A DNA stretch of 64,000 nucleotides from the NCBI GenBank assembly GCA_000004985.1, contig GG738863.1; one strand, 5' to 3'. Below, piece after piece: positions 5,360 through 59,935 of this stretch; position 1 is the stretch's first letter; each line of letters starts with the position of its first letter. A model generated the notes under the pieces. The model saw only the letters and a program-made list of their open reading frames with translations, was not told the origin of the DNA and made no database searches. Source of the DNA: Naegleria gruberi (Eukaryota). The translations under genes and the position numbers were made by a program.

Positions 5360-5764
5360 TTTTTTTTTACAAATCCAGTCTTGCAAACTTTACAATATTT
5401 CATATTTTCATATTTCAATGAACATTCACAATGCTCAATAAATTTTCGGTCTACACTTGATTTTACTAACAAAACTGAAACTTTTAATTTTACTATCACA
5501 GCGTAAAACGAACATCTCATGATATCTGTAGATGTTATTTTTAGAAACCAACTTTAAAAAAATTCTCGTCATTCTTCTTTATAAAATTCTTCTTATCTGA
5601 TAATTGGACACAACAACGACCAAACGGGATTGTTAATTCATAATTTCGTACCAATATAGAAAAGCAAGTAGCTCCCGATCAAAACTACTCTACTGTATTG
5701 AAAAACTTGGACAAAATAACAAAATAATATCATCATCATTAAATATTAGTTTAATTTAAAGTTT

Positions 5765-7111
5765 TTGTGTTTGCTGTACAGTATGATAACAACACCAATT
5801 TCTCCTGCACACATTTTGAAGGGTTCTCCCTCACCAACATCATCAACATCAGGAACGGGTGGAAAGAAAACCTCTCGACCTCCTAAAGGATCAAAACAAT
5901 TATCATCTCCTATTTCCAATCAATCTTCCTCCACCACTTCATCAATACCACCAATGACGCCCAATGATCAACTCCCACAGCAACACGTACCTTCTTTTAA
6001 AGGTCCTGTGATACCTCCTCCAACACATTTTCCTTACTTTCCAATGAATCCAATGGCTATGCCTAATGTTCCCATGATGTATGCTCCAATTAATACGATG
6101 CACATGATTCCTACCACCACACCAATGTTTGGCATGTTTCCACAGCCTGTAATGCCAAATATTCCTCCTCCAACAACTCCCCATAATACTTCTTTTCATA
6201 AGGTTCCGACTCCAATTCAACCAAAGCCTAGTACAAGCCCTCCATCATCAACCCAATCCACCATCACCACCACACAGTCTTCTAAAACAAAACCAAAGAA
6301 GAAAAAGAGACCACCAACAAGTAATAGGAATGTGAACACTGCTGATAATAGTAATAATACATCACCAGTAGTTATTTCTAGTAATATATCGAAAACGGCC
6401 GAAACAACAAGCAATCAAAAAAGAAAAGAACCTCCAACAACTAGTCGTTCAGTTCATCAGCATATAATTTCATATTTGTGGGAATTGGGACTCAGGGATA
6501 GTGCTAAAATTTTGGAAAATGACCTCAATAATCCTCTTTTGTTGAATGCTTCAGAAGATCGTGTAAGCTCTTTTGTGAATAATTTGAGTAATGAAGTTGA
6601 GCGTCACTCACACACAATACCCCCTTCCAATAAGAAAATTTCCACCAACGAAAAATCTTCCAGTAGTAATTTTACAACAACCGATGAAACATCAATAATT
6701 AATTCAAACGAAAATGATAGTTTTATGAGTGAATCAAATAATTCAACAATGGACAAGTACAACTCTGAAAATTATCTCAACATTCTCAAACAAACCACCA
6801 AATCTGAGAGCTACAACAAACCAACTGCTGAGTATGTCAATGAAAGATTGGAAAACTTGGAACAAACACTAGGCGTAAAGGAACAAAAAGTGCAAGTATT
6901 TGCCAGAATGAAAGAAGTGGAAGAAAGAATGCTCAAATTGGATGTTAACAATAATGAGATAGCACAACAGCAACCGTTACTTGGCAGTTCTGGTACTGCT
7001 GCTAATGATAATGTGCATGATGACAACTTCTTTGATAGCTTTTTTGAAGATGACACAGATAACCACCAAATGTCTGAATCACATTTTCAATTAGATAATA
7101 CAGACTGTTAA
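5765..7111 (+). CDS. low-complexity Pro/Ser/Thr/Asn-rich protein with a LisH-like motif
   Basis: 448-aa ORF. The compositionally biased N half (PPTTP, poly-S/T) matches the codon usage of neighbouring genes. HQHIISYLWELGLRDSAKILENDLN resembles a LisH dimerisation motif. The annotated start is probably the second ATG (MITTPISP). Confidence 0.5.
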   Translation: MCLLYSMITTPISPAHILKGSPSPTSSTSGTGGKKTSRPPKGSKQLSSPISNQSSSTTSSIPPMTPNDQLPQQHVPSFKGPVIPPPTHFPYFPMNPMAMPNVPMMYAPINTMHMIPTTTPMFGMFPQPVMPNIPPPTTPHNTSFHKVPTPIQPKPSTSPPSSTQSTITTTQSSKTKPKKKKRPPTSNRNVNTADNSNNTSPVVISSNISKTAETTSNQKRKEPPTTSRSVHQHIISYLWELGLRDSAKILENDLNNPLLLNASEDRVSSFVNNLSNEVERHSHTIPPSNKKISTNEKSSSSNFTTTDETSIINSNENDSFMSESNNSTMDKYNSENYLNILKQTTKSESYNKPTAEYVNERLENLEQTLGVKEQKVQVFARMKEVEERMLKLDVNNNEIAQQQPLLGSSGTAANDNVHDDNFFDSFFEDDTDNHQMSESHFQLDNTDC

Positions 7112-27720: not shown

Positions 27721-29244
27721 TCAATATCGTTTTTGCATCAATTTCAATGGTTCAAATATTTGAGCTGCCTCATTTTGATCAATATTATTCCCGTGAATAT
27801 CCAAATAATCTAATTCTTCCAAATGTACCAATGATTTGACTCCCTCAATACTAATCTTATTTTCGGACAGGTCAAGCTTTTTTAAAGGTTTCAATTTGTT
27901 GACAATAATCTCAACACCATCATTGGAAATTGCATTACATCCTATATAGAGATATGTAAGCTTTTTGAGATGTTGAATATCATTCAATCCATTATCGGAT
28001 ATTCTGTTGCTTGAAACGTTCAAAATGGTCAGTTGCCTCATGAAATTCGAAATTAGTTTTAATCCAGTGTCCTCGATATTGTTTAGTTCAATTTCTAGTA
28101 ATGTTAAACAGCTTAACGTACATAACTTATCTACGCCAATGCATCCAATAATATTGTTGGATAAACTCAGACTGGTCAATCCAGTTAGTTCAGAAAGTCC
28201 TTCTGTTTCATTCTGAATAAAGTTGACGTCCATGGAAAGGGATTTCAACTGCTGCATTTTACGGAGAATACCAACACTACCAGAATATCCCATGCCTCTT
28301 AGACCCAGCTCTGTCAAATTAGGCAAAGAACACAGACCAATAAGAGACTGCTGTGGAATAAGATGCCAATAATTACTTAAATCCAGGCTTGTTAATTGCT
28401 TCATGGTAGAAATAAGGAGAGGTGTGTTTTCCTCAAAGTCATCATTTTTTTGAAGACTGAGTGCTGTCAAGGATTCCATTGAAGTAATAAATTCAACACC
28501 ATCATTAGAAATTCCAATTCCATCCGCAATTAATTCATTCAAATTTTTCAAATTGCTAATAAATTTAGCTCCTGTGTCCGCTATGATATTTTGTGAAATA
28601 TTCAAAGTTATTAAATTTTGTAAAGAACTAATCGATTCAGCTCCAATAGATGTAACTCTATTACAAGGTATTGACAATTTCACAAGTTGATGCATTGAAC
28701 CAAGTAATACAGCTCCCTTATCACCAACACTTGCACCTGATAGATGTAAATTTTCCAAACTTGTCATTGTACTAATCACTTTTGCTCCATCCTCTCCCAG
28801 AAATGAATTATAAATCTTTAAAGTTTTCAATCGTTTCATCTCCTTACTGATAATGTGCAAATAATCACGTGAAAACAAACAATGAGCAAAATCCAACTCT
28901 ATCATGTTTTTCAAGTAAGAGAGTGGATAGTCAGGATCGAAAAAGTAATCAATATTCGAAACTCTTGAAACATAAAACAAATACATTTCCCTTCCAACAT
29001 TATTCCACTGTTTGCTAATGAGAAAACAATTTTGAACCACTGGTTGAAAAGTTAAATATTCCATGATTAAAAAACAAATATCATCAGCAAATACATTCAA
29101 TCTTCTTTCATTGCTTTTAAGAGTTTTCATTTTCTTCTCCTTTTTTTCCATACTACTTTCATCAAAAGGTTGCTTTGAATTTTCTTCTTCCGAAGCTTCA
29201 CCATCACTCGATTGCTTTCTTTTCATTTTTTTCTGGTTGATCAA
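27721..29244 (-). CDS. F-box / leucine-rich-repeat protein (RNI-type LRRs)
   Basis: 507-aa ORF. An acidic/basic N-terminus is followed by NVFADDICFLIMEYLTFQPVVQNCFLISKQWNNVG, which is F-box-like. More than 12 tandem repeats of about 24-28 aa with the pattern LxxLxLxxNxIxxxG fill the rest. Confidence 0.7.
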   Translation of the reverse strand: MINQKKMKRKQSSDGEASEEENSKQPFDESSMEKKEKKMKTLKSNERRLNVFADDICFLIMEYLTFQPVVQNCFLISKQWNNVGREMYLFYVSRVSNIDYFFDPDYPLSYLKNMIELDFAHCLFSRDYLHIISKEMKRLKTLKIYNSFLGEDGAKVISTMTSLENLHLSGASVGDKGAVLLGSMHQLVKLSIPCNRVTSIGAESISSLQNLITLNISQNIIADTGAKFISNLKNLNELIADGIGISNDGVEFITSMESLTALSLQKNDDFEENTPLLISTMKQLTSLDLSNYWHLIPQQSLIGLCSLPNLTELGLRGMGYSGSVGILRKMQQLKSLSMDVNFIQNETEGLSELTGLTSLSLSNNIIGCIGVDKLCTLSCLTLLEIELNNIEDTGLKLISNFMRQLTILNVSSNRISDNGLNDIQHLKKLTYLYIGCNAISNDGVEIIVNKLKPLKKLDLSENKISIEGVKSLVHLEELDYLDIHGNNIDQNEAAQIFEPLKLMQKRY

Positions 29245-38931: not shown

Positions 38932-41900
38932 TTATTCATAAACTTCTGCAAATTCAGTTGCACTTCTACCAAATATTTCAGGGCTATACATTTCCTCAGC
39001 TTTTACACCTGGAATAACAAATGAGCCAATAGATGTAGCTCTGGCAAGGTAGGTAAACTCATGAGTACCTTCCCATAATAATGAACTGAATGCTTCCACT
39101 CTTTCATCTCTAATATTATGATGCTCGTACCAGATTGGATTCCACCAACACCACCAACGTCTTGTTCCTCTATTATTATTGGATCCAGTTCCACTAACAC
39201 TAGCAATAGCTGGGGTTCCTTTCAATTCTGGATTGATTGGTTCGAGACCAGCTGGTAAAAAGTCAACTAGAGCAACATGATATCTACGACTAGTATTTGT
39301 CATTCTCAACTTGATACGAACCAATTCTCCTGCCTTAAATCTCCAACTATTCTTTTCCTTATCAAATGTAACATGAGAAGGATTAGTGACGTGCTCATAA
39401 CTTCTTTGAACTTCGAAACCGTAATCCAAAGCGTCAACAAGTAAATTCTTTGGAGCATAATCCATACCAATTCTATAGTATAATCTTCCTTCCCTTGNAA
39501 TGTTTGTTCTCCACAATAATCTTCTCCAAGCCATGCGTTAACAACAAAATCTGGGGTAACTCCTTCAAAGACATTAAAGTAGGTATTGAGAGCAAGGAGA
39601 ATGAAAACGTTTTCCTGAGTATTACCCCATCTTCCCTTCTTCTTGTGAGCCAACAATCCCTTAACAATTTTTGGAATGAGGTGTGATTTTGGAGAGATAT
39701 TGATGAATGCTTCCAAACAAATACCGTCGGTTCTTCTATCACTGTGCAACATGATATGCTTGGTGGCCATTACATCTCCATAACTGGTGATAAAGTTTGC
39801 TGTTTGAGCAGTTTCATTAGCATTCTTATCCAAGTGTGTCATAATTTCTGAAACTGTGCTTGTTTCTTTCTTACCACTTGCAAGATAAATAGCAGTAGCT
39901 ATCCATGCAAGATATTCCATATTTCCTTGGAGTTTCTTTTCCTTATAGAGAGTTTCAGCTAATGACTTGGCATCAGATTCACCCAACAAGGCCAAAACAT
40001 AGTAAGCATAAGCTTTGATGGATCTCAAAGATTCTGGAGAATAATCAGTACAGTATCTTTCAATAGTTTTGAGGACTGGAATGAGTTTGGACATCATTGG
40101 TGCATTCAATGTGTAACCAGCAATTTTACAACGAGCCATGGCGTGACCAACATGGCAAGTAACGTAAGGAGACACCTCATAATAGCTAGAGTAGGACCAA
40201 TAGCCAAAACCACCATTAGGGAATTGTCTTGAAGCCAATGTAGAGAAATATCCATTGATTTTAGTGTCAATAGCATCTTTGGTTGGTATCTCTGGAACTT
40301 GGAAGGCATACAAAATATCCTTGAGGGCAACAATTGACAATATTCTACTAGAAATTTGTTCACAACATTCAAATGGATAGTTATACAAATAGAGGAAAGT
40401 GTCAGTGAGTGATGACAAGGCAGTAGAAGAAGTTGTAATCTTGAGACCACCAAATTGTGGGAAAACATTTTGAGGAGCCTTTACAGGTTGGAAAACTGAA
40501 GAATCTCCATCCATTTCACCATAAGTTGCAAATGCCTCAGTAGTAGCTGGTGTGAAAACTCTAATCTCCTTTTCTACAGCATCGGCAAAATTAATGCCAG
40601 GTGTAGCAATGGAAACACCAACTTGGAATCTGGCAATACCAACACGATCTGTTGACATTGGGAATCTCAATTCGGCTCTTCCCATAGCAGGTACTTTGAC
40701 CCTCAAACCCTTCTTTGAAGAATCCAAAAGAGCCAAGTTTGTGAAGTTAATAGCAGCATTGACAACAACATCAATTGGGACTTGACTTTGTAAAACACAT
40801 GTAAATTCAGCTCTGTCACCAAAGTTAAGGAATCTTGGAAGGGATGGTCTGATTGCCAATGGAAGTTGAGCCACCATAGATGATTCATGAATTCCAAAAC
40901 ATGAATCTCCTTTGATTGCAACAGCTGTAATTCTATACTTGGTCAAATTGTCAGGAAGTTTGAATGAAACAGTTGCTTTACCATGGACATCAGTTACGCT
41001 CTTTGGACTGAAAACTGCAAGAGGATTAAAGTTAGATCTGACAGAAATTGCTGAATCTTCTGGTTGGTCTTCCTCGCCCTGGGAAGATGCATCTTTACAT
41101 TTACCACCTCTAGCACAGCATTTACGACAGCACTTACAACATTCCCTGTCACAACAGCCAGAACAAGAAGCACTAGCACAACAAAGCAGTTCTGGTTGAT
41201 CTCCTTCGAATACAACTGAATCATAACTCTTTACAAAAAGGTAGCTTCTCAATGAGTATGGATTAAGAACTGGATAATTTCTACGAGTAAATGTATTAAG
41301 AGGATTAGAAATAGAATATCCTGTCAAGGAGAGAACAGCTTCATCAACTGCCACAATGCAGACTTCAGAATTTTGAATTGGTTCACCAGTGATTGGATCC
41401 TTAACAAGTACATCAATGAAACTTTCTGCTCCTGGAGTTAAATATTCCTTCTCAGGTTTGGTCTCAACAGTTAAGGTTCTAGTGATGTTGGAAACAGAAA
41501 TTTCACATTGACCAGAAGCATATGCAGGCTGTTTTGGCAAATTAGTAAGAACGGTACCCACTGCATCAACTCTTGATTGACTTCCTGCAACTTCAACACT
41601 AACATAAATATTAGGAATGCAATTTTTGGTAATGTCAATCTCAATTTCAGTACAACCGTCTTCTGGATCAATAGTTATTGGAATATGTTTGATCACATCG
41701 TCAAGTGATACAAGTGCAACACCTTCACATTTTCCATCAAGGTTAGATTGAATAAGAAGTTTAGCCTTATCACCAACTTGATATTCAGTCTTGTCTTTAA
41801 TGATGAGAAGGGTGTCCTTAGAAATTCTCTTGCCAACCTTTTCATCTCTTGTGGAACCACCTGTAATATACAAGTTAGTTCTTGATGAATTTGTAAGCCC

Positions 41901-44900
41901 AGTTTCAGGATCAACAATTTCGACTTTGAATGAATAACTGCCACCTTTTTCAAATTTAACAGGTACTTCAACTGGTCCGTCTTTAGATGAGGTCAAAATT
42001 TGTTCAAAAACTTGCACGGTTTCATCTACAAACCTGAATCCCTTCTTTACACTAACAGATGTGGTAGCTGTCAATTTCATTTGAATACCAGAGACTAAAT
42101 TACCATCGACATCAGATGTAACAAGGGATGCAGTTACAGGAATATTAGGTTTAACAAATTGTTTGCTAAATTTGATACCACAATAATACTTGCAAGGATG
42201 GACAAGGAATGAAGTACTCGAAGAGATTGTTTGTCTGTTAATATCTTGAACAGTAGATTCTATTGAGATAGTTACTGGTACCTTGTTAGGTCTTGCAGAC
42301 TCTGTAAAAGAAATAGCAATTTGATGTTCTCCGTTACCGTCTGTGGTACCTTCAAATGTGGTACTTCCTAAAACAGAGCCAGTACTACTACCGAATCTTC
42401 TCATTCTATAAAATCCCATGTATGGATCATTACCTTCTCCAAAAGTATAGGCGTGTTGGTTAGGAGGAGTATATGATGCAGACGTTTGCTTGATGGTATA
42501 ATTGCATTTTCCACCACAAATACCTCCACCAGAGTAGTATTCAGCCTTGGTAGTGCATACAGCAGAATTTCCATTCACAATATAATTACCAGCAGGAACG
42601 GAAGATGATGATTTGAATTCTGGAGTTCTGAATTCTTGTACCTTGAAGGAATGTGAGGTTGAGAAAGCAGTGAATGTAATGATATGATCTCCCAAGTTAG
42701 CATTATCAGGAACCTTAAAAGTAAAATCAAAGGTTCCAAGTTTTGAAATTTCAATATCTCCCTCACAATATTTTTGACCTCTGGCATCATGGACTGTATA
42801 GTGTGTTGTTTGTTCAGAAGGAAGAACGACAATAGGTCCAGAGTCTTGCAATTTGAACTTTCTGACGATACCCTTGATGGAAACAGTTTCATTAGGCTTG
42901 TACAATCCTCTATCGTTGTAAATATGAGCAACGGTATCTGTACTAAATTTTGAAGTGTATAGTCCAACATCTGGAATGAAACAAGAATCATTACCATGCT
43001 TGGCAATCAATTTGGAAGTACCTGCATGAACCTTATATTTTCCAATACCAGTCTCAGCGTCAGGAGTAACATGTGCATTTACCTTGATGAATTCCACATC
43101 TTTCTTAATAATACTACCATCGCTCAATGAGTTAATCCAGAAATATAAATGAGATGAATGAGAATCATATGAACAATCAAGGGCGATCTTTGTAGATTGT
43201 ATCCATGCACAGTATGTTGGACGATAGTCCCAATTTCCTTTCCAACTAGTTTTAGTTGGCTCAACAAAAACCATCAAGTGACCCAGATTTTCATTAGGGA
43301 ATTGAAGATATTGTGAGAGGTCTACCTGTGTTTCACATGGTTCATCTTTCTCTCCACTGATTGTCAAGGTAGTGTCTAAAACCATTTTTCCTGGGAATTT
43401 GTAACTATTGTTATAGGCACTATAGTTAAGAGTTTCACCAGAATAGATTTGAGGTTCTACTTGACAAACTTTAAATTGTACAGAGTCCATATTTACAGTA
43501 ACAAAAGAATAGGTTGGTTTGGTGTTCAAGGTTGGATCGAGTACCATTACACCAGTACCAAAAGCTTGTAAACTTTGACGAGCACTTCCAACTTGAAATT
43601 CAACAACTGTATCAGGAAGAGTTTGTCCCCAAACATCTACAATACCCTTAAGGAAAAACTTATAGGTTGTTCTACCCTTTGATTTGCCTCTGATTGTCAA
43701 ATAAGTTCCACTTGGATTCAATTCCATGTTTTCCAATAATGGTGAAACAGTAACCATAGACTCTAAAAGCTTATCAACATCAATAGAATTGGAGAAGATA
43801 ATAGTGAAAGGCTCCATTGGAGTTGAACCACCAGATGAACGATCTTTTCTAAATTCAGGATAAGTGTATACATGAATTACTGAATCTTTCAATGATGGAA
43901 GAGGGCCTTCTGTACCAACAACTCCCTTATTAATTGTAATATCAAAAGAAGCTCCAATAGAAACTGGATTATTTTGGAAATCAAAAGTAAACCACAAATG
44001 TCTAGATTCAGGAGCTGAAGAAAGTTTGGAAAGATAAGAGTTATACATGGATGAATGTTTCTTTTTCAAATTATAATCTTCCATCATTTTCTTAACTTGA
44101 TCTTGAAGGAGTGAATTTGAGGATTTTCCATCGAAAATCAAACTAGCCTTACGACCTGGAGTGGAAATAAATGGTAATACAGCACTTGGGTCAATCTCTT
44201 GATCAAACTCGGCATAAAATACAGGGAATTCATTAACTGGCATTGAGTGGCTATTTGGCAAATACTCTTTAACATAAAGTCTTGGTGTTTCGAATGTAAA
44301 AGAAAAATCTGATTTCAATGTGCCCCCATTTTGTGAGCTAGTTCCTTTCTTGACAGTAACTGTATACTTTGTAGACATGTCAAATCTATAGTTGGCTTCA
44401 TAGACTAATGTTTTGGAACCCAACCACTTGAATTTACCTCCCTTTTTTGGGAGTGGTGAAACAATAACAGGAACTGTCTCACTTTCAACACTATCAATGC
44501 TGGATACAGCAACCATTGGTTGAGAGAAGGTAATTGTAATGGATGGAACAGATCTATCTAATTCTCCTTCTGGTGAATATCTCAAAATGGTCAAATCAGA
44601 ACCTGAAAGCTGGGCTTCTTCTTCCTTCAATTCTTGTGGTTTCTCCAATTTAACTTGAGGTGGAAATTCAACTTGAATAGAGTCAGCTGTCACTGGTGCC
44701 TTTAAAGATTTTTCTCTACATTTACAAATATCATTTCAATCACAAAATCCATCAATTGTAAAACTACTTACCTCATGAAGAAATCTTTTTGATCAGTGTC
44801 ATCACTCTTAATTGCTGGTAATCTATTCAATAATCTGTTAGTTTCCTCCTCTGATAACTCCTCAATGGAGCATAATTTTGCTCCCGATTCTTCTTCTGAT

Positions 44901-45049
44901 GATGATGCTGATAAATTTTCCAACAAAAGGGCTGCTCTACTATCCTCCAAAGTTGGTTCTCTCACCTGCAAATTGATTTGATCATAGGTATTAACTGATG
45001 GTACCAAGCCAGTTGGCAATGTAACTGGGCGTCTTGATAGAAGTCTCAT
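38932..45049 (-). CDS. alpha-2-macroglobulin / thioester-containing protein (TEP) family, about 2000 aa, two or more exons with a frame break at an ambiguous base
   Basis: Exon 1 (45049-44772: MRLLSRRPVT...DFFM) ends at a GTAAGT donor. A 56-nt intron (44716-44771) rejoins in frame to ...REKSLKAPVTADSIQVEFPPQ, which is ORF 39306-44693. Long MG-domain beta-rich repeats follow. YNYPFECCEQISSRILSIVALKDIL aligns to the thioester site [22 protein letters not shown]. An alpha/alpha TED-like region follows. After the single n at 39498 the protein continues in another frame (ORF 38932-39534: ...YHVALVDFLPAGLEPINPEL..., the typical A2M C-terminal region). No N-terminal signal peptide is evident. Confidence 0.8.
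39498..39498. other. single ambiguous base (n) coinciding with a reading-frame switch in the A2M/TEP gene
   Basis: The frame of ORF 39306-44693 and the frame of ORF 38932-39534 can only be joined within about 12 codons of this base. Confidence 0.8.
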
Positions 45050-45320: not shown

Positions 45321-47543
45321 TTAAGATTTGGACAGGAAAGTGTTCACCAGTTGACCATTTAATTGTGAACTGGAGAGGTTTGGTTCGAATAATTGTCTTG
45401 TTGAGGGATGGAGCATCTTGAAGGTTTCTTCACTAATATGCAATTGATTCATTCTACCATTTGCCTCAATAGAATTACACAGAGAAACTCCCTCACCAAA
45501 CAAATCAAAACTTTGCTTGAACTTTCCAACAACTGCTGCTGTAATATTGGTAGAGGTGTGAATTCCAATTCGGACACCAATCTTGTTAGGATAGTTCCCT
45601 CCACCCAGAAATGCTCTCTTTTCATTGAATTTCTCAATGGATTTAATCATTTCAAAGCCACACTTAACACATTGCTCTGCATGTTTCGGTTCGTCATAGG
45701 ATGAGCTATGATAAAGACCACCAGCTAGGAAATAGCAATCTCCAATGGTTTTAATCTTTTCCAGCTTGTTGGAGGAGCATAAATCATCAAAGTTTTCGAA
45801 TATATCATGGAGCATCTTGATAACACTTGTTGGATTCATGTCACTAGTCAATTTGGTAAATCCAACAATGTCACAATAGAGCAATGTACAACATACAATA
45901 GAGTCAATAACTTTCAGACCCATTGAAAGTCTTTGTGCAATGTTTTTAGGGAAAATTCGATCCGTTATTCTGGTCAATTGTTCCTCTTTCGTTGCAACCA
46001 TTCCAGTATCTCTAATGAATCCAATAAAGTGAGATTTTTGACTTTTTGGATCAATTACTTCTGAAATTCTGGTTTCTATTGAGAGAATTCGTCCACATTT
46101 CCCTTCTGCTTTGAGGAACCTTACACTGTCAATTACTTTTTTCTGACCAGTTCTCATGTATCTCTCTAAATAGTAATCGTGCTTTCTTCTATCTGAAGAG
46201 TTGCAAAGCATTTTAATGTTTTTACCGAGAACTTCATATTTCTGATAGCCAAAAACATTCACAGCCGAATGATTAAAAACCTGAATGATTCCTTCCTGGG
46301 TAATAGCAATGATTGGAATGACTGAAAGTTCAGTAATTGAATCACAAATAGTCTTGTTTTTCATAAGTTTCTCATCTTCTTCACTTGTTTTACATTGTTG
46401 AATGTAGAGACAGTAATGAATCGTGCCAGTTTTTTTAACGGTGACAACTTTACCGTGACAAGGGAATGATTTCTTGAGTACGTTTGAATAGCATGTGAGT
46501 TTTAAATCTCTTACCAAAAGCTTTCGTCTTCTTCTCGATCGTTCCTCTTTCCTTGCAATTGAATATGGCAATCCATGAGAGGCACAATGAGTTTCTGTTA
46601 TATCCCAAGAATTCAATGAACCAGTAAATCTTTCAATTTCCATCTGAATGTCCATAATTGACTGCTCATCCACATACTTTGAAAGATTTTCGCCTAGAGC
46701 CACAAATGAATGAATTCCAAATAATTTCTCAGATTCTGGATTTAAATACTCGATTTCAAACTTCTCATTGAATATAATGATAGGAAATCCACACAACATC
46801 ATTTGATCTATGGCAGAATTCAACTCCTCAGATTCTTCCTGCATGAGTGGTGCGTCATTTTCAGTATATCCATTCATTACACTTCCATACACTTGCAAAT
46901 CACTCACCAAATCGAATGCATCATGTGTATAATCAATTGCTTGTTCAGACTCTGCTTCTGTCTCACCTTCACAATATTCTGATTCGATTGTTTGTCCAAA
47001 ATTAGCAAGACCGTTCAGTAAATTATTAGAGCTTTGCAATCCTTTGAGAAGCCTGGACGAAAGTCCCTTCTTGAATCCTGCAGCCCTTTTCAGTGTTTGC
47101 ATTCCTTGCTCTCTACTCTGAACAGAGAGAAAACTTGCTCCACTTCTAGCAGAAGATTGGGCACTTTCACAACCCATATCTGTAGAGTTTAAATCAAGAA
47201 AGAGTGAGTTTTTCAATTCACCTGGTTTAAGGCAAATGGAGGCACTTGCAACAGCCATAGTTGAGTATTGTCTTCCGAGTTGAGTAGGTGGTTTTAGGAC
47301 TTTTCTTTTAGGAAAAAGAAGTGGTTCCTCTACTCCATACGTACTTGTAGCATCTCCATTATATTCTGAAGTTTCGCATGAAGATACAGAAATTGCAGAA
47401 TCATCGTCATCATCATTAAGAGAAATTGAAAAGCCAGAAGGTTTCGTAATAATGGTTGGACGACTGTAGGAGAAAGTCTGATACTCCAAGTCACCAGAAA
47501 TTGATTCTTGCTCCTCAACAAGCATTCGTTTCTTCATGATCAA
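45321..47543 (-). CDS. PAS-PAS-class III nucleotidyl cyclase (adenylate/guanylate cyclase catalytic domain at the C-terminus)
   Basis: Single 740-aa ORF. An acidic Ser-rich N-terminus is followed by two PAS-like segments (CGFPIIIFNEKFEIEYLNPESEKLFG...; ICDSITELSVIPIIAITQEGIIQVFNHSAVNVFGYQKYEVLGKNIKML). The cyclase domain then reads CCTLLYCDIVGFTKL (metal Asp), KIKTIGDCYF, RIGIHTS...AAVVG, FDLFGEGVSLCNSIEANG. Confidence 0.85.
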   Translation of the reverse strand: MIMKKRMLVEEQESISGDLEYQTFSYSRPTIITKPSGFSISLNDDDDDSAISVSSCETSEYNGDATSTYGVEEPLLFPKRKVLKPPTQLGRQYSTMAVASASICLKPGELKNSLFLDLNSTDMGCESAQSSARSGASFLSVQSREQGMQTLKRAAGFKKGLSSRLLKGLQSSNNLLNGLANFGQTIESEYCEGETEAESEQAIDYTHDAFDLVSDLQVYGSVMNGYTENDAPLMQEESEELNSAIDQMMLCGFPIIIFNEKFEIEYLNPESEKLFGIHSFVALGENLSKYVDEQSIMDIQMEIERFTGSLNSWDITETHCASHGLPYSIARKEERSRRRRKLLVRDLKLTCYSNVLKKSFPCHGKVVTVKKTGTIHYCLYIQQCKTSEEDEKLMKNKTICDSITELSVIPIIAITQEGIIQVFNHSAVNVFGYQKYEVLGKNIKMLCNSSDRRKHDYYLERYMRTGQKKVIDSVRFLKAEGKCGRILSIETRISEVIDPKSQKSHFIGFIRDTGMVATKEEQLTRITDRIFPKNIAQRLSMGLKVIDSIVCCTLLYCDIVGFTKLTSDMNPTSVIKMLHDIFENFDDLCSSNKLEKIKTIGDCYFLAGGLYHSSSYDEPKHAEQCVKCGFEMIKSIEKFNEKRAFLGGGNYPNKIGVRIGIHTSTNITAAVVGKFKQSFDLFGEGVSLCNSIEANGRMNQLHISEETFKMLHPSTRQLFEPNLSSSQLNGQLVNTFLSKS

Positions 47544-51005: not shown

Positions 51006-52349
51006 TCATACCAAGACCCTCTCTTCACTAATTTGTACAGAATTCATTGAATGAACATCTGTTGCTGTATCAATATTGAGATAAATATTGGTATTAGTGT
51101 CAGAGGCACGAATGGTTCCATTATTTTCAACTCTTGAAATTTCAAATTGTGGAGGTGGTTCATTCATTGAAATTAAATGAAGTTTTTGAGTCTTTCCACC
51201 TTCAATTTCACAAGTTCCTAGAAATCGTATCGTACAAACTTCGTCCAATATTGAAGCTGTTGTTCCATCACAAATTATTCCACTCTCTAAATGATCGATA
51301 GCATAATAACAATGAGCAATAGATGAATTGATTAATTCCCCATACAATCCAAAATGTCTTCTAAAATCCGATCCAACACTAGCTCTGTAACCATAACCAC
51401 TTGCAAATCCAACACCATCGACCTCTAAATTCTCCCTATGAATTAGTTCTTTCAAACAGTGAATTACTAATGAAGGATTGGACTCTGCCATATGTCGTTC
51501 AAAGCTCAATATAAATTTTAGACTCTTTCTATCAAAGAACATATCAAGAACACAACAGTTATATTGCTCTGAAACAACTTGAATAGAATTGACAATATTA
51601 TTCTTTGTTGCNNNNNNNNNNNNNNNNNNNNNNNNNNNNNNNNNNNNNNNNNNNNNNNNNNAATTAATTATATTCATTAATTTAGCTGTAGACAGAGGAG
51701 TGTTTGTTCCGAAAGTTTGAAGAGGAGCCATTAATTGTTTCCTCTTTCTAATAGTTGCATTTACCTGCTTAATAATCCTTTTCTTTTGAATTTTTGAATT
51801 AGATTTGAACCATTTTGCATCCTTTACAGTGTCTTGCAGATCTTTCTTTTTAGCCATTAATTCCATAGTATCACTAGGAGAAGCATTTACTATTAATGAA
51901 TTTAATGGAATACATTTTGCTCCCAAAATTTTCAATTGATTCTTTTTGGAAGTAACCTTGTCAGCTTTACGTTTTAGAACTAGAACACTTCTTTGATTAT
52001 CATCATGAGCAATAATGGAATAGGTTTGATTTTTTCTACTTGCAATCAGTGTTTCGAATGGAACAGTTTCAATATGTTGTAATTCTTCCTTTCTGATTTT
52101 ATAATTTTTAACCTTTTTAATTTTGTCAATGCATAGGGCAACATATTTTCTCTTCAACCATTGAAATACTCTATTACAACAAAATCCTTGATGAATGTGT
52201 TTCTTTAATTCTTTGGATGCAAGATTTCTTCCTGTTTTATTCAATAAAAAAGCTCTGTACCAACGTTTCTTGTTGTGAGTTGTTTGACAGCAAACACAAA
52301 CAGTTCCTTTATCAATTAGTTGTGTTGATCGTGATGACAACTTACACAT
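51006..52349 (-). CDS. hypothetical protein (Cys-rich basic N-terminus; interrupted by an assembly gap)
   Basis: 447-aa ORF reading across the N-run 51612-51661. MCKLSSRSTQLIDKGTVCVCCQTTHNKKRWYRAF..., with ...GYGYRASVGSDFRRHFGLYGELINSSIAHCYYAIDHLESG at the C-terminus. Convergent with the EEP gene, with 6 bp between stops. No family assigned. Confidence 0.45.
   Translation of the reverse strand: MCKLSSRSTQLIDKGTVCVCCQTTHNKKRWYRAFLLNKTGRNLASKELKKHIHQGFCCNRVFQWLKRKYVALCIDKIKKVKNYKIRKEELQHIETVPFETLIASRKNQTYSIIAHDDNQRSVLVLKRKADKVTSKKNQLKILGAKCIPLNSLIVNASPSDTMELMAKKKDLQDTVKDAKWFKSNSKIQKKRIIKQVNATIRKRKQLMAPLQTFGTNTPLSTAKLMNIINXXXXXXXXXXXXXXXXXATKNNIVNSIQVVSEQYNCCVLDMFFDRKSLKFILSFERHMAESNPSLVIHCLKELIHRENLEVDGVGFASGYGYRASVGSDFRRHFGLYGELINSSIAHCYYAIDHLESGIICDGTTASILDEVCTIRFLGTCEIEGGKTQKLHLISMNEPPPQFEISRVENNGTIRASDTNTNIYLNIDTATDVHSMNSVQISEERVLV
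51612..51661. other. assembly gap (50 N)
   Basis: n run inside ORF 51006-52349. Confidence 0.99.
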
Positions 52350-52705: not shown

Positions 52706-53161
52706 TACCTCTAGAAAATGCTGGAAATGAAAAAATTAAAAAATATTTCATCACCAGCTATCGCATCATTTGTTTTAAACTCTCTAATTTATTTAAAATT
52801 AATATTAAATAATTAATTGATTATTAGATAATAGATAATGCCTCCTCGTAAGAAAGTAGAACAACAAACAAGTTCTTTTGCTTGTCTTGAAAATATTTCG
52901 GAACATGAAATTCAACAAATTGCTGTTAAAAAGAGGAGAGGACGACCAAAAACAAAGCCTTCTATTTATGCCGATTTTCCAATTGCTGATTGTATGGGAA
53001 GAAATTGGATTTTGAGTAATGAAAGTGAATTGAGAAGCAAAGTAGATTCATTCCGATTAGTGTGTTATAATATGCTTTGTCAAGACTATGCAAAGAAACC
53101 ATACTTTCCACACTTGTCGGATACCACTGAAATTTTGAGTTGGATTAATAGAAAGCATAGA
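52706..53161. repeat. near-identical duplicate (about 99%) of 49601-50051, covering the promoter and first 108 codons of the EEP nuclease gene and ending at an assembly gap
   Basis: Direct comparison shows identity except for a few indels/substitutions in the upstream part (A7 vs A6; cattcgttttcaaactct vs catttgttttaaactctc; an extra tagataa) and one coding substitution (ggacggcc vs ggacgacc). Confidence 0.85.
52838..53161 (+). pseudogene. truncated duplicate copy of the 5' end of the EEP nuclease gene (108 codons, then gap); probably an assembly artefact rather than a functional gene
   Basis: MPPRKKVEQQTSSF...WINRKHR is identical to residues 1-108 of ORF 49728-50999. It is cut by the N-run 53162-53211. 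Confidence 0.6.
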
Positions 53162-53211
53162 NNNNNNNNNNNNNNNNNNNNNNNNNNNNNNNNNNNNNNN
53201 NNNNNNNNNNN
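53162..53211. other. assembly gap (50 N)
   Basis: n run separating the duplicated EEP fragment from the sAC-like paralogue. Confidence 0.99.
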
Positions 53212-54630
53212 GTTTTGCTTTCAATACCATACAGTACATTTCTGTTCATGAACAGGTAGAGAGCATTTGCAAAAGTGTAATGGAAGGAAACAGAGTCAAG
53301 TGGATGAGAAGAAATATCCCTCGAAAGTGATGTAACTTGAAATAAATTAGGTGATTCCTCATTAGCCCTCAAAAATTGCCTACACTTTTCAAATATATCA
53401 CCACTAATATAAACATTACCTTGTTTACACTCTTTCAACAATTCCCTAACCCTTAGTAAAACTTCCCCTCCGAAAATTCTCAACCATTGAGATCCAAAAC
53501 CTCCCAAATGATAGGAAGTACACTCACCCACATTAATAACACATTTCACCTCCAATGGTGTGTCATTTGATTTGTAAGTTTTCAAATTGGTCATGGTTTG
53601 AATTTTAATTCCACATTTTACAGCTGCAAGAATTGAATCTGTGAAAGTTCTATCCATCCTAGGTGAGTAGAATTGACAAATAATCAAATCTCCTTGAAAT
53701 TTTTCAATATCTCCACCCATTTCATATATTACAGCAATTAAACTAGTGTACACATAGTAGATATATCTTGATATTTCAGAAACGTTGCAAGTATCCTTTT
53801 CATGATAGAAGGAGTCCACAATTTTTGAAAATCCTTTCATTTCAATAAGTAATATACATGTTTCATAGGAAAATTCACTCACAGGTGAGAGTAACTTCAT
53901 CTTTTCCTCTTCCACTGGTTTGATAGATGAAGTAGAACCATTTTGCTTGTATTTCTTCCACAAATTAATTCCAGGACTTGATGATTTCTTCTTATTATTT
54001 ACCAAAGCTCCTCTTACTAGGTGATGAAGATCTACTATTAGAATCACTATTATTTACAACATTATTATTAGGGATTGGTGATGTTGGACCAGGTGGTAGT
54101 GAAGGAGAATGTGGACGGTCAGATCCCTTATTAGAAGCAGATCCAGTACTAACAGAGAGAAAACTAGAGAATTTACTCTCTGTATCGAGACCTTCATTGG
54201 AATTTGTTTTCTGAAGGTGATGTCCTAGCTTTACCTTATATTGTTTACCCTCGCCTCCATAATATATATATCGGAGGCAATATAGTAAATGTTGAGGAAG
54301 GAAGGAGGTTGACAATTCGAGATTTAATTCCTCCTGTGATTTGGCCTTGGAAGGTGATACAGATTGATAATTATTCAAGCCAATAAAGCTCACTCTAGCA
54401 TTGGGTATTCGGAAGGAGCTTGCCTTCTTCATCTCTGCTGAGGCTCTCACTTGAATATTCTCAAATTCCTCACTGGTGATGGAGGTTCTTGATAGCTTGT
54501 CCCTTCCAAATTGAAACTTGGGCGAGAATGTATTAAGGGAGTGATGGCCACCTTGTGTTGTTGTGATGGATTTGCTGAGAGAAATGTGATCACCGCCCTG
54601 CTTATGAGAAGAGCTACAGATAGCTCCCAT
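53212..54630 (-). CDS. sAC/ADCY10-like cyclase paralogue (N-terminal region plus first cyclase-homology domain only; frame break; truncated by the gap). Possible pseudogene or incompletely assembled gene
   Basis: ORF 53995-54630 starts MGAICSSSHK... and is paralogous to the N-terminus of the downstream gene (shared ...FLPQHLLY(C/N)L..YY). ORF 53145-54047, in another frame, encodes SEFSYETCILLIEMKGFSKIV...LIAVIYEMGGDIEKFQGDLIICQF..., the cyclase C1 homology. The two frames overlap at 53995-54047 with no plausible intron, and sequence is lost in the gap. Confidence 0.45.
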
Positions 54631-54981: not shown

Positions 54982-57900
54982 CTACTGCTTAATTATCTTA
55001 TATCTTTCATTCAAAGATTGGATTGATTCGTGTTGTTCAATGTAATTTTCCATAAGATAATCCATATCTGAAATAATATCTGGAAGTTTGTCTTCTACAT
55101 ATTTCAGTCCTTTCGATATTAAATAATGATAGCAGTCGTACATGTCCAGAAGAATTCTCAACTTGACACCATGCGCTGATTGAGAAGAAACAAATTGCAG
55201 TGCATCAGAGTAGGATTTTTCAACATTAGGATAGCATTCTTCGAAAGATGCCTCAAGCAATGAGCACTTGATTAGAAGAAATCTGGATTGCAATCTCAGT
55301 ATTTCTCCTAATAAATTTTCTTGATGTGATGCTAGTGCATTCTTGAAGAGTGTCTCTGTATGTTCAAGATACGGAACATCAGTACCAATTTGGATACTAT
55401 CTAGGAATTCCAAATACTTGACCCGAGACTCTAAAATTGCATAATCGAATATTAAGCTTGGAGGTGCATAAATGTGAAGAGAGTTAAAGAGAGATTCCAT
55501 GTGATCAGCTTGTTCCCTTAACCGTTGCTCTTTCTCTACAATATTAATTCCAGACGTTAACTCTCTGCAAAATTGGACATAGGCAAGATAAAACTTGGCG
55601 CTTAATACTTGGGTTGGACTTGCCACAGTTGTTGAAAATATTGAAATGATGCTCATTCCTTGATTAGCTGATCTCTCTAGCTCATCCAATTGACCACTAA
55701 TTAATAAATAGTAGCAAGCAAATGAGTAAAAGAACATGTAAGAAGGGAGGTGAAGTCTGACCCTGCTCTGTTCAGATCCCAAAGTGTAGTATTTTGATGC
55801 ACTCTCATATTTACCAACAGACCACAAAGCCCGCATCGAGTAGGTACAAGATACAAGCAAAGCATCCCTTTTTCTGAACCTATTAATGGACTGTTGATGA
55901 TACTTGTCGGGATCGCTCAAATACTGATTGATAACATCTTCAGAGAAGAGAATTACCTTATTAAAATTACCCCTGGTGTTGTGAGTCATCATGCAAGATA
56001 CAGAACCAAACATTTGCTGTGTAGTATCTCCTATTTCTGTTGATAAATTAATGAGGTTTGAACTCAATACTATTGCTTCATCTGTCTTGTTCAAGTAAAA
56101 AGCCATGAACCATCTCTCAGATTCAATAGAAAAGATCAACTCTTTCTCTGATTCTGGGCAATACAGTTTTGCTTTGGTTAATGCTTCCTCACCAGTCGGC
56201 ATCAAATTTGCGTCAAACAAATTCTCAATAAATATTCCAAATTTGAGTAGACTCTTTGCAAGTAAGATTTTAACACTCAAAAAACTGAGACCCAAAATGG
56301 AAAAAGTTGAAGAAATTCGTGTTATCCCTTCAAATCTCTTTCTGGTAATATCAATCAGGGAGAGAACTGACTCGAAAACGTTCAGCTTTGTAACATCTAA
56401 TAGGTCGGTGTACTTGACTTCTTCATTTCCTTCCTTTTCTCCTTTCCACAATGTTACAATTTTCTCCAATATCGTATTAAATGAAACACAAAGATGCTTG
56501 AAAACAGAAGCTTCCTGCTCTTGGCTCAATAGAGTGATAGCTTTTGGAATTATAACACACGCCAATGCTAAATGAAGCATTTCCTCCTTTTCTACTGATC
56601 CTAGCGAGAGGGTTTCCTCTAAAGCAATCTTATCAAAATAGTGGCCTAAATGAACGGCGATTTCCTTAATATACCACGAGGATCGTTCTCTACTTTTGTG
56701 TCTTCTACATTGTTGCTCAATTGTCTTGATAAAGTGTTTGGCAAGAGACATGTGAAATTCTCTCTTTTGCTCTTTGGGAGTAGTGGAATACACAATCTGT
56801 AGCATCATGGAAGATTTGAATTTGAACGTTCTGTCCTTACTTGATGAACAAGCAAGAAAATGTTTACCCTTTGTCTCCTCAACCACTTCTAAAAACTGAT
56901 GACTGCCAACAAGATTCTTCAAAATATCTGATAATTTTCTGTCCTTTTTCACATTTGATTCCTTTGGGAATATTGCTTCAAGAGTCTCAAAATCGAATTG
57001 GATTCCAATCGAAGATGCAACTTTCAGAACAAGTTGAGAGTCAACATCCAATCTGTCAATCTTTTGTTGAAAGAACGAAGACATTGTGGCAGGCAATTCA
57101 ATCGTATCCATAGTCGTAAATTTAAACTTGAGGCAGCCATCTTCTACATAAGTTCTTCCATTTTCTTGTAAAAAGTGAAGGGCCATTGTTAAAAACTGTT
57201 GATTTCCCTCTGTTTTTTCGACGAAAATGTCTAAAACCTTTGGATCGACTTTTGAAGCATTAAAATAAAGCTTTAAGTATTCTTCACATTCAGACTTGGT
57301 GAACTCTTTAAGGTCGATTACTAAGTCAGCCTTAGCCTTCCACTCATCAAGCTCTTTTCTCTTCTCCGCCATTTGTGGTCCATCTGGAAGCTCGTTACAG
57401 GAAAGCAACAATACACAGTTGGTAATTCCTGGCTCAAGGTCCAAAATTTTTTTCGTAACAATCCTTGAATAGGGGTCAAACTGCATTGTAAAATGGAAAT
57501 CGTCATATAGTAGAAACCAAGGTTGTGCTGAATACCCCATATACATCCAAGAAATAGAAAGCAATCTAGCGAAAAGATCAGCAGCGATGGTAATTCTCTC
57601 CTCCTGATCCAGTTTAACACTATCTTTCGACTCTTTAAACTCGGTACCTACAACTGGGTTCAATAAGTATAAATTGTCACGATCTTTTTCTTCTTTGAAA
57701 GTTTCCAACATTATTTCTTCTCTTTGTTCTCTACTAATATTGTTGTAAAGATTTTCAACATCATTATAATCTAAATCCAATCCGTTCTTCTTATAAAAAC
57801 GTTCAGTAATGCTAATCTTCAGGTTTCCTAGATAGAGATAAAATGGAGTTTCGAACTCAATAGCTGAATTATAAACACAGGCAAGTTTTGATTTCAATTC

Positions 57901-59935
57901 GCTCACTAATCTTCTCAAAAGGTCAGATTTTCCAACACCATTTTCTCCTTTCACAAAAATTATCTTGGTCTTTGTTTTCTTACCCTGTTCTATTTCTTGC
58001 TGTTTTTCATTAACATATCCACAAATACTATCAAATATTTCCTCTCTTCCAATAGGATATTTGAGAGAATTCAAATGCTCAGAGCCACTGTAACTTTTCT
58101 TACCAGATGATTCAGAATGGTCTTCTGTCATAATTTGTGAAGGAGATTTCTTAATGTTATAATACATTTGAGTTGAAGAGATTGATGAGTCTTTGACCTT
58201 CCAAATTTTTATCAAATCTGATTTTCCCTTCACCTTGATTGGCTCTAGTGGTTCTATTGGAATACCCTTCAACATTTGAGCTGTCTCCTCTTCACATAAC
58301 ACAACTCCATCATTTTTTTCTGATTCCTTCATTAAACGGGCAGCCAAATTTACCTTATCACCATAAATAGTAAACTCCTTTCTATATTCTGACCCACTGA
58401 TACAGATTATTAAGGTTAAATAAATATAAACATACACATTTCCAATAAAACACTTTCCACTGGCAATTCCCAATCCAAACTTCATTCCTAGTTGAGATAA
58501 ATTGCCTGACAGTTCAATACCTGCCTTCACTGCTCTAATGGAATCACTGATATGACTAACAGGATAACCAAAAGAAAATACAAGAATAGTACCCTTTTCA
58601 TCCGACAACATGTTTGCAATAAAACCCTCATAAGTTTCCAATACGCCTTGAACGTTTGTTAAATATGTTTGATACACTTGCATTTCATCATCTTTTGTTT
58701 CGTACTTGTTTGTATCAATAATGGACAAGAACCCCACTGTGAGAGGTTTGACTTCATTGATCCATTCACTTTGTCCTGCATCTATCTTGTTTCTAACAGG
58801 TGGGCTAATAAATTTACGAAGTATTGGAATAAAGGTTGAGTTCACTGTTAGAATGGGTAATGATAGTCCAGTAATGGGCTCCCTTTTTGATGCCAGAGCT
58901 ACATACACATCTGCCTCTTTGATTTCTAACTTTCTACAAGTGATATAATTGGAACATTTTTCAAATGCTGGCCTGGTTATCACAACTTGTCCTACCAGAC
59001 TATTACCCAAAGCGGAGGACATTTCGAGAAGAGCTTGGCCAGAAGTGATTCGAAGCCAGTAATCATTCACTCCCAAATGGTGCGTCGTTACATATCCCAA
59101 AGACACACCACAATGTATCTGAAGTGATATGTTATCATTCACCTTGAAAGATTTCAAATATTCAGTCTGCTGAATTCGCAAGGCACATTGAACAGCCGCA
59201 ATTACACACTCAGCCAAAGTTCTATCCTTACGTGGGTAATGGAATTGACAAATAATAGCCTATAGATTTCATTCAATAAAAAAGTTCTTAAGCAACTTAC
59301 ATCTCCTGCAAATCGTTCGATATCTCCTCCAAACTTTGCATGTTAATACTTTGCGCAATTATCCTACTTACATCATAAATAAAGGCAATTAATGTCGTAA
59401 AATATTGATTAATATATTTAGTAAGAAGCTCAGCTCCATTAGGTTCTTTTGAAAGGCTCTCTGTTAAATTAGTAAATCCAGAAATGTCAATCATTAAAAT
59501 ACAGGTTTCATATGTTATATTACTAAGTGGAGACATTGTTGTTGACATTTCTTCCTCCAATGCCTTTGATTTCCTATCATTTACATTACTATTATTATTG
59601 CTCTTGTAATAGAGAGACTTGAGATTATACAACAAATGTTGAGGTAAATAAGAACAAATTATTTCCGCATTAACCTCCTCCGTTGTTTTTTTTCCATTTC
59701 CAAAAGGTATTGTTTTAAATCCCATCAAATTCACTCGGGGAGGAGGAAGTTTGAAAGAGTGTGCCTTACGAACCTCCACCACTTTCGTTTCTGACTCCGA
59801 GGAAGCATAAGAATCTTTTGATACTCTCCTTTCCGAATATCTAATTGATTTATGTTGATTAAAATCTTTTGGTGATTCTTGTTGATTAGGACTAACAACA
59901 TTCTCACTGCTGTTCAAGCTGCAAGCAGATCCCAT
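54982..59935 (-). CDS. soluble adenylyl cyclase (sAC/ADCY10)-like protein: two cyclase homology domains, P-loop NTPase region and C-terminal helical/TPR-like repeats (about 1620 aa, 4 or more exons)
   Basis: Exon 1 (59935-59372) encodes MGSACSLNSS...TYETCILMIDISGFTNL...LIAFIYD. A 38-nt intron (59334-59371) is followed by a 33-nt exon (59301-59333), FGGDIERFAGD. A 41-nt intron (59260-59300) leads into exon 3, AIICQFHYPRKDRTLAECVIAAVQCALRIQ.... Joined, IAFIYDFGGDIERFAGDAIICQF matches sAC KVLIFGGDILKFAGDALLALW. A second domain carries ...IGNV|GSEYRKEFTIYGDKVNLAARLM across an in-frame 39-nt intron (58397-58435). Further elements are FVKGENGVGKSDLLRRL (Walker A), hhhhDD (Walker B) and long helical repeats. 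Stop at 54982. Confidence 0.8.

Follow-up and report, generated by a model that had tools for sequence, protein, structure and literature searches.

Thioester proteins, among them alpha-2-macroglobulin (A2M), complement, the insect thioester-containing proteins (TEPs) and the bacterial A2Ms, are textbook defence molecules of the extracellular space or the periplasm. In bacterial A2Ms, the thioester is shielded by two tyrosines of the thioester domain (TED; Y-P-Y) together with a Met-Tyr pair of the C-terminal macroglobulin (MG) domain, and the RDDR and ExMY motifs of this C-terminal MG domain swap the TED for the cleaved bait upon activation (Fyfe et al., PMC4498604). In metazoan TEPs, the residues of the thioester pocket are all contributed by the MG domain at the C-terminus, CTMG (PMC4498604). 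From a protist, the Dictyostelium protein CPRas2 was described, in which a Ras-like GTPase is inserted in a COG2373 scaffold (Elias and Novotny 2008, PMC2430557); it was the only related description found in the literature on Naegleria macroglobulins, eukaryotic COG2373 proteins and amoebal thioester proteins.

The locus analysed here lies on contig GG738863.1 of Naegleria gruberi (assembly GCA_000004985.1), in a stretch of 64,000 nucleotides, the whole of which is referred to as the window. It consists of a single minus-strand gene (45049..38932) with one 56-nt intron, encoding an A2M protein of ~2050 aa; the joined product as sequenced amounts to 2019 aa, to which a missing piece has to be added. 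With a probability of roughly 60%, the locus is best explained as one intact nuclear Naegleria gene for a monomeric, bacterial-type (COG2373/YfaS-ECAM-like) A2M, an estimate which covers origin, mechanism and location of the protein jointly. The family as such is already present in databases, and gene transfer into Naegleria is unsurprising. New is a bacterial-type thioester A2M that was domesticated by heteroloboseans, lacks a signal peptide and, in Naegleria, carries a cysteine string in its bait region; a possible intracellular thioester system is suggested, because the export signal is consistently lost and the thioester trigger fully retained.

Domain architecture and thioester trigger

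The gene was organised as follows (window coordinates, strand, description):

44772..45049, minus: exon 1, ATG at 45049; residues 1–92 plus 2 nt; hydrophilic N-terminus without signal peptide
44716..44771, minus: 56-nt spliceosomal intron (GTAAGT...TAG) in phase 2, separating FFMR from EKSLK
39499..44715, minus: exon 2 up to the gap; residues 93–1831; MG array, bait-region domain, A2M/MG7, CUB-like domain, TED, start of MG9
38935..39495, minus: coding part after the gap, 187 codons; end of MG9 and C-terminal MG domain
38932..38934, minus: stop codon TAA
44286..44579, minus: Big_5 (bacterial Ig-like) domain, residues 139–236; Pfam E 6.2e-07
42651..42929, minus: MG2 domain, residues 689–781; Pfam E 6e-13
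41325..41804, minus: A2M bait-region domain (A2M_BRD, PF07703), residues 1064–1223; Pfam E 1.2e-17
40791..41015, minus: A2M domain (PF00207), residues 1327–1401; Pfam E 2.3e-13
39552..40424, minus: TED, residues about 1524–1814; all-alpha toroid in the AlphaFold2 (AF2) model, mostly with a predicted local distance difference test score (pLDDT) >90
38977..39420, minus: bMG10 (PF17973), bacterial A2M C-terminal MG domain; Pfam E 1.6e-32, second piece
40356..40367, minus: thioester motif CCEQ, residues 1543–1546, preceded by Y-P-F; aligns with CLEQ of ECAM
39504..39515, minus: second CGEQ (WLGEDYCGEQ), at the start of MG9 adjoining the gap; non-thioester

Exon 2 was a single open frame from 44715 down to a lone n at 39498, which divides the coding sequence into a main and a second piece. 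The splice junction (..DFFMR/EKSLKAP..) was confirmed by collinear alignment with ten homologs, and the phase-2 position of the intron was common to the N. fowleri ortholog (130 nt) and to an N. lovaniensis paralog (95 nt).

The domains were obtained with a Pfam scan (cut-off E ≤ 0.01), as had been proposed in the first-pass annotation of this DNA: Big_5, MG2, A2M_BRD, A2M and bMG10 were found, MG4 gave a weak match, and A2M_recep, TED_complement and Thiol-ester_cl were without a match in either piece. A Ras or other GTPase domain, including cpRAS, was likewise not among the Pfam matches of the protein, and an NCBIfam scan of the main piece assigned no family. An AF2 model of residues 94–1290 (pLDDT 86.5) consisted nearly entirely of beta-sandwich domains, and a second model of residues 1225–1831 (pLDDT 79.5) of a disordered bait, followed by beta domains and the all-alpha TED. 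When the MG-array model was subjected to Foldseek, the best PDB matches were SaA2M of Salmonella (4u48) and ECAM of E. coli (5a42) with E about 1e-35 over ~950 columns; with E values between 1e-17 and 1e-20, the model of residues 1225–1831 matched C4, C3, C5, ECAM, SaA2M, human A2M and CD109.

Pfam, AF2 and Foldseek hence agree on a protein of the A2M superfamily with MG array and TED, as the first reading of the DNA had held, and with a bait region. Its filing under A2M/TEP stood at the level of the superfamily and fell for the eukaryotic TEP lineage, bMG10 being present instead of A2M_recep and the relatives being bacterial proteins of the YfaS/COG2373 type. The window protein is a bacterial-type A2M and does not belong with the TEPs of animals or dictyostelids, because of its bMG10 C-terminus, the lack of matches to metazoan-type models, and the bacterial nature of its nearest non-amoebal relatives.

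With phmmer against the PDB, ynYPFECCEQissr was aligned to kaYPYGCLEQtasg of ECAM, an experimentally established thioester site, which confirms that CxEQ is kept at the true thioester position. The thioester column contained CxEQ in 112 of 118 aligned homologs (6 without), C, E and Q each being conserved to ≥90% (69 sequences), and the motif was kept in 13 of the 14 heterolobosean copies. Its x position varied among the 118 homologs (CSEQ in 73, CAEQ in 12, CNEQ in 9, CTEQ in 7, CCEQ in 5, and M, R, I, L or V at x in others), with Cys confined to the Naegleria paralogs. Going by this alignment, CCEQ is ordinary variation at x and no departure from the motif; the replacement of Gly by Cys, formerly taken as a variant of the site, is no oddity. 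In the AF2 model, the TED helix begins directly after Cys1543. At position −4 of this cysteine the conserved Tyr is present, and at −2 a Phe stands in place of Tyr (Y-P-F-E-C), as in several bacterial homologs. RDER (39100..39111, minus) and EEMY (38986..38997, minus) in bMG10 align with RDDR and ESMY of ECAM. The predicted thioester pocket is of the bacterial type, its aromatics being supplied by the TED (YPF).

Since Y-P-F, RDER and EEMY are all present, the whole bacterial-type trigger is retained, and this is the main reason for proposing that the protein still is a bait-triggered covalent trap, a function which the conserved parts suggest. Before activation, Tyr and Phe from the YPF motif, together with Met and Tyr from EEMY, would shield the thioester. 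A protease would then cleave the disordered bait, and the freed bait and the TED would become rivals for the C-terminal MG domain with its RDER and EEMY motifs. The TED would swing out and expose the Cys1543-Gln1546 thioester, which would react with a lysine of the protease, so that the latter would be covalently locked in.

The second CGEQ has the same letters as the canonical thioester motif of animals, and would probably mislead searches that go by motifs. It was kept in all 12 amoebal sequences of paralog groups A–C, and the aligned bacterial homologs shown carry Ala in place of Cys (AGEE, AGEQ, AGSH and similar). As an alternative thioester it was rejected, given its location in MG9 outside the TED and the bacterial Ala for Cys.

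Export signal and bait region

The N-terminus (MRLLSRRPVTLPTG) reached a maximal 12-residue Kyte-Doolittle (KD) mean of 1.07. Among the 30 closest bacterial homologs examined, a hydrophobic segment was located at residues ~4–25 in 28 (12-residue KD maximum 1.8–3.3), the remaining two without such a segment being apparently 5′-truncated. No N-terminal hydrophobic segment was carried by any of 14 heterolobosean proteins (the window protein, eleven others of groups A–C, and two of a fourth group, N. fowleri FDP41_008308 and a Willaertia protein) or by the transcript from Sappinia pedata (KD maxima −0.03 to 1.6). A hydrophobicity scan revealed no transmembrane-like segment anywhere in the window protein, the other heterolobosean proteins or the Sappinia protein. 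The lack of a signal peptide, already remarked upon for this single gene, was thereby confirmed and found to be clade-wide in heteroloboseans.

An in-frame stop is located 5 codons upstream of the ATG at 45049, and the stop codon of the preceding gene, a PAS-adenylate/guanylate cyclase, lies 271 nt from this ATG. Within the 271-nt interval, no Met-initiated hydrophobic peptide was found. At the locus of the N. lovaniensis paralog, the distance to the upstream gene is similarly ~270 nt. An upstream signal-peptide exon, which had been named as the finding that would remove the oddity, is very unlikely, because 271 nt (~270 nt in N. lovaniensis) separate the gene from its neighbour and all 14 heterolobosean proteins are devoid of such a signal; the scanned interval offered no candidate. 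In exon 1, LQVREPT (L-x-V-R-E-P-T) aligns with the bacterial L-x-FRLSEG motif, which directly follows the signal peptide, and the amoebal proteins start a few residues ahead of their LQVREPT counterpart. As all amoebal homologs are signal-less, with aligned starts and tight upstream spacing, the loss of the signal peptide is old and clade-wide, and not an artefact of the gene model. Mitochondrial targeting through the basic start MRLLSRRP was weighed up and dismissed, since other paralogs begin with acidic sequences.

Two further steps, which are the least certain of the account, would be a single loss of the bacterial signal peptide, which every amoebal copy has lacked since, and a most likely site of action in the cytosol or at the cytosolic side of membranes, not in a secretory compartment. 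It could instead be secreted or luminal after all, by way of an unrecognised 5′ exon, an alternative start, unconventional export or delivery to the phagosome, and would then trap extracellular or phagosomal proteases in the manner of bacterial and animal A2Ms. Every characterised A2M or TEP acts outside the cytosol (PMC4498604), and an oxidising compartment could allow the many cysteines, those of the Cys-rich bait included, to pair as disulfides. Against such a location stand the in-frame stop and the 271-nt spacing without a hydrophobic Met-peptide, the same spacing at the N. lovaniensis paralog, the missing hydrophobic N-terminus and transmembrane segment in 14/14 heterolobosean proteins and Sappinia, the start of the amoebal proteins closely ahead of the motif found behind the signal peptide in bacteria, and the lack of conservation at most Cys positions. 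Secretion is thus regarded as unlikely, if still to be reckoned with.

A cytosolic trap is the preferred reading, and the bait of the protein contains a string of cysteines:

41034..41231, minus: bait region, residues 1255–1320, 66 residues; hypervariable among homologs, pLDDT <50 (predicted disordered)
41097..41183, minus: cysteine string of the bait (CCASASCSGCCDRECCKCCRKCCARGGKC), 29 residues with 12 Cys

Cys strings of 9–17 Cys were present in the baits of seven of nine Naegleria sequences of groups A–C (a count that includes two near-identical N. fowleri copies of one gene) and of the divergent N. fowleri paralog. They were absent from the Willaertia baits, and among 105 bacterial baits just one contained a single Cys. 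Four Cys-string baits were submitted to a Pfam scan at E ≤ 10, which gave no match; the likeness to cysteine-string protein or metallothionein is compositional only. Bait lengths of 66–96 aa in the amoebal proteins compare with a bacterial mean of 69. The amoebal proteins as a whole contain 19–49 Cys (1–2%) vs ~6 (0.29%) in the bacterial ones, most of them at unconserved positions, which is weakly in keeping with a reducing compartment. The cysteine-string bait is a previously unreported feature. In Naegleria it may be a lipidation, metal or redox element, candidates being a palmitoylation anchor, a metal site, a redox switch and a disulfide knot: a palmitoylated bait could tether the protein to a membrane, or the string could render it sensitive to metal or redox state.

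The remodelling of the bait into a Cys string not seen in bacteria also raises the question of whether the protein is no longer a protease trap, its MG/TED scaffold having been co-opted for another intracellular role (thioester tagging of cytosolic invaders, a metal or redox sensor by way of the Cys string, or a structural function). Loss of the signal implies a new compartment, the Sappinia copy (STEG) and one Willaertia paralog persist without CxEQ, and in Dictyostelium CPRas2 a scaffold of this bacterial type houses a GTPase (PMC2430557). On the other hand, 13 of 14 heterolobosean copies keep, under purifying selection, everything that is specific to a trap (a disordered bait of normal length, YPF-CxEQ, RDER and EEMY), which makes such a change of function rather improbable.

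Frame break, relatives and origin

The C-terminal part of the protein is separated from the remainder by an ambiguous base:

39498, no strand: lone n, assembly defect; ~97 nt (~32–45 MG9 codons) absent between TTnCAAGGGAA and GGAAGATTATAC

The frame break falls between GAACAAACA (..EQT) and GGAAGATTATAC (GRLYY..), within 11 nt containing the n; after it, reading resumes in another frame for 187 codons up to the stop. This n is the sole single one of the window, the other three gaps being blocks of 50 N. Upon DNA comparison, the window was 97 nt shorter than the N. fowleri ortholog at the n, and in protein alignments it lacked ~32–45 residues (FKGRSKDENQLNIPMS...KTLAISKxGP) which nearly all of the aligned amoebal and bacterial homologs possess. 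On either side of the missing piece, N. fowleri has a short repeat (AAGGGA...GGAAGA). The 187 codons after the n are stop-free and constitute the most conserved segment of the protein (89.6% identity to N. fowleri, 57% to a bacterial homolog).

From these data we strongly infer a collapse of assembly or consensus that hides ~100 nt of MG9, by far the likeliest cause of the break. The C-terminal open reading frame (ORF), earlier supposed to belong to the same gene, does so, with bMG10 in the second piece and a conserved downstream frame; the supposed change of frame at the n was located correctly (within 11 nt), and is not a simple shift by one base, as ~97 nt are missing. A real and recent inactivation, in which the ~97-nt loss and the frameshift at 39498 would have turned the gene into a pseudogene, could have been driven by slippage at the AAGGGA...GGAAGA repeat, and the n is a single base, unlike the 50-N gaps elsewhere in the window. 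The ambiguous base, however, falls precisely on the junction, where a faulty join of the consensus would put it, 187 downstream codons without a stop in a genome of 34% GC form the most conserved segment, and bMG10 is matched at E 1.6e-32. There is accordingly little chance of a pseudogene; an assembly defect is preferred because the downstream piece is the best conserved, and the split annotation is an artefact for repair, not a sign of two genes or of a pseudogene.

The closest proteins to that of the window were N. fowleri FDP41_002492 (74% identity), two N. gruberi proteins (63% and 61%) and proteins of N. lovaniensis and Willaertia magna, which marks the window as DNA of a Naegleria and not of a dictyostelid. 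They were followed by full-length, collinear proteins of 2000–2100 aa with 35–37% identity, the named ones being mostly from Acidobacteriota (Pyrinomonadaceae, Chloracidobacterium) and assigned to the YfaS/A2M family. The 148 homolog matches listed comprised heterolobosean paralogs, one Sappinia transcript and otherwise bacteria, with no metazoan or dictyostelid TEP among them; the Dictyostelium Tep proteins, at first suggested for comparison, were therefore the wrong reference.

A tree was calculated by neighbour-joining (NJ) from Kimura distances over 1810 well-occupied columns with 30 bootstraps. The heterolobosean sequences were monophyletic in 30/30 bootstraps and fell into three Naegleria paralog groups, the window protein being sister to N. 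fowleri FDP41_002492 and N. gruberi being duplicated within that group. With a search seeded by the Sappinia sequence, a fourth, divergent heterolobosean group was found, and no further amoebozoan members. This group consists of N. fowleri FDP41_008308 (2381 aa), which retains CTEQ and a Cys-rich bait, and a Willaertia magna protein (2273 aa) without CxEQ, both with long acidic or Ser-rich N-terminal extensions. The Sappinia pedata transcript (Amoebozoa; EukProt EP01101) encodes a full-length homolog of 2048 aa that has lost the thioester (STEG for CxEQ). Owing to the overwhelmingly bacterial distribution and the bacterial domain type, a bacterial origin is inferred, with entry into the ancestor of Naegleria and Willaertia and with Acidobacteriota as the nearest sampled relatives. 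After transfer, an intron would have been gained and the gene would have diversified into at least 4 paralog groups.

Inheritance by vertical descent within a eukaryotic TEP/A2M lineage, comparable with Dictyostelium or animal TEPs, is highly improbable: superfamily architecture and CxEQ are shared, and complement C4, C3 and C5 are among the top Foldseek matches of the TED half, but bMG10 stands in place of A2M_recep, TED_complement is not matched, no metazoan TEP occurs among the 148 matches while bacterial homologs attain 37% identity over their full length, SaA2M and ECAM are the best matches of the MG array, and the thioester pocket appears bacterial, with TED-supplied aromatics (YPF). Bacterial contamination or a chimeric assembly, to which the bacterial nature of the nearest non-amoebal homologs might point, can practically be dismissed because of a spliceosomal intron at a position common to three Naegleria genes, eukaryotic flanking genes on the same contig and uniform GC, and is further opposed by 74% identity to a chromosomal gene of N. 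fowleri.

Several points weigh against the combined reading of an intact, bacterially derived, cytosolic trap. The TED was without a match to any Pfam TED model. Formation of the thioester bond is a prediction from sequence, and the extra Cys beside the thioester Cys in CCEQ might compete with it or alter its reactivity. The proposed localisation rests solely on the absence of a recognisable signal, and unconventional secretion or phagosome delivery would be compatible with such an absence. A true 97-nt deletion in this strain is formally possible. With regard to origin, the Sappinia sequence joined the heterolobosean clade in 30/30 NJ bootstraps, at ~36% identity to amoebae and bacteria alike; it may represent an independent transfer or shared ancestry, a single transfer and several being both possible. 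When rooted on distant bacterial A2Ms, the eukaryotic clade was sister to 92 Acidobacteria-type sequences and not nested within them; the case for donor and direction is therefore built on how the family is distributed among taxa. NJ from Kimura distances is, moreover, a weak method.

Around the gene, GC was ~34% throughout the window (range 32–38%). The neighbours of the A2M gene were the PAS and adenylate/guanylate cyclase gene directly upstream (45321–47543, minus strand; Pfam) on one side, a 2-oxoglutarate-Fe(II) oxygenase and a DEAH-box helicase on the other, with a CCR4-like nuclease also flanking. By eye, the minus-strand ORFs 53145..54047 and 54982..59217 (1411 aa) are cyclase-like as well, which suggests a local cluster of signalling cyclases. 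ORF 27721–29244 (minus, 507 aa) appears by eye to encode a leucine-rich-repeat protein with an F-box-like N-terminal part. Scaffold gaps of 50 N are located at 11238–11287, 51612–51661 and 53162–53211; the latter two interrupt the minus-strand ORFs 51006..52349 and 53145..54047, respectively, leaving incomplete gene models. Comparison of synteny gave no added support, as the neighbours differ at the loci of the N. fowleri ortholog and the N. lovaniensis paralog. Directly upstream of the N. fowleri ortholog, a pair of ORFs resembling a non-long-terminal-repeat retrotransposon is located (Exo_endo_phos_2, RVT_1; 4543–6937 and 2332–4523 of the N. fowleri locus), and this pair may explain the lost synteny with the window. 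Beside the one Pyrinomonadaceae homolog examined, neither pbpC nor the partner genes of the E. coli yfaS operon were found, and the gene was stand-alone.

Significance and comparison with known systems

The consistent absence of the export signal from a protein whose thioester-pocket machinery is fully kept is an oddity, found in free-living and pathogenic Naegleria; a second one is that the Cys string sits in the very segment that proteases must cut. Tentatively, and with considerable doubt, it may be proposed that heteroloboseans run an intracellular, complement-like thioester system: a captured periplasmic A2M, stripped of its signal and expanded into at least 4 paralog groups, would covalently trap or tag proteases, or the pathogens they belong to, in the cytosol. 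Targets could be cytosolic proteases or the pathogens secreting them, such as intracellular bacteria and giant viruses. If true, this would be the first thioester-containing protein family natively working inside the cytoplasm. A cytosolic location would extend thioester-based capture to a new compartment and offer a tractable protist model of how a bacterial defence protein is rewired after its horizontal acquisition. In N. fowleri, a pathogen that is lethal to humans and has prominent proteases, the four genes of this kind are as yet unexplored as candidates for the control of proteases or for a defence against microbes inside the cell.

Metazoan TEPs (A2M, C3/C4/C5, insect TEP1, CD109) share the superfamily fold and a CGEQ thioester, whose exposure is triggered at the bait or anaphylatoxin; they differ in being secreted or glycosylphosphatidylinositol-anchored, in their A2M_recep C-terminus, and in an identity to the window protein of 12–16%. 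Dictyostelium discoideum CPRas2, compared by its description, is likewise a protist protein with flanks homologous to bacterial COG2373 (A2M-like), and is presumably intracellular given the inserted Ras-like GTPase; in contrast to the window protein, it is much larger and contains the cpRAS GTPase. A paralog from N. gruberi, XP_002670374, bears the name 'ras GTPase domain-containing protein' in NCBI and UniProt, and no Ras is among its precomputed Pfam hits; the misnaming can probably be traced to CPRas2 with its COG2373-like flanks.

With ECAM (YfhM) and SaA2M (PDB 5a42, 4ziq, 4rtd, 4u48), the window protein has in common the MG array, BRD, TED and C-terminal bMG10, a disordered bait, CxEQ at the same position, an aromatic pair in the TED (YPY vs YPF here) and the trigger motifs (RDDR/ExMY vs RDER/EEMY here). 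Identity amounts to only ~15–19%, and the amoebal protein is ~400 aa longer, with a Big_5-containing N-terminal extension; it has neither signal peptide nor lipobox, is encoded in a eukaryotic genome with an intron, and contains a Cys-string bait. The gene context of the ECAM type (e.g. an adjoining pbpC) is replaced in the window by eukaryotic neighbours.

Closer are the uncharacterised proteins of Acidobacteriota and other soil bacteria (YfaS/A2M family/DUF6049, 2000–2100 aa), which are collinear over 97–100% of the length at 35–37% identity, yield the same Pfam set, and possess CSEQ or CAEQ and the N-terminal motifs L-x-FRLSEG and LLxRLPxIK. In contrast to the amoebal protein, they have a classical signal peptide (KD 1.8–3.3), ~6 Cys, nearly Cys-free baits and no intron. 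The N. fowleri ortholog FDP41_002492 (XP_044563385) stands closest of all; the N. fowleri proteins bear the automatic database name 'Alpha-2-macroglobulin domain-containing protein'. Apart from the assembly defect by which the window copy is split, the two genes correspond in 74% identity of their products, the same intron position, CCEQ, a Cys-string bait and the lack of a signal peptide.

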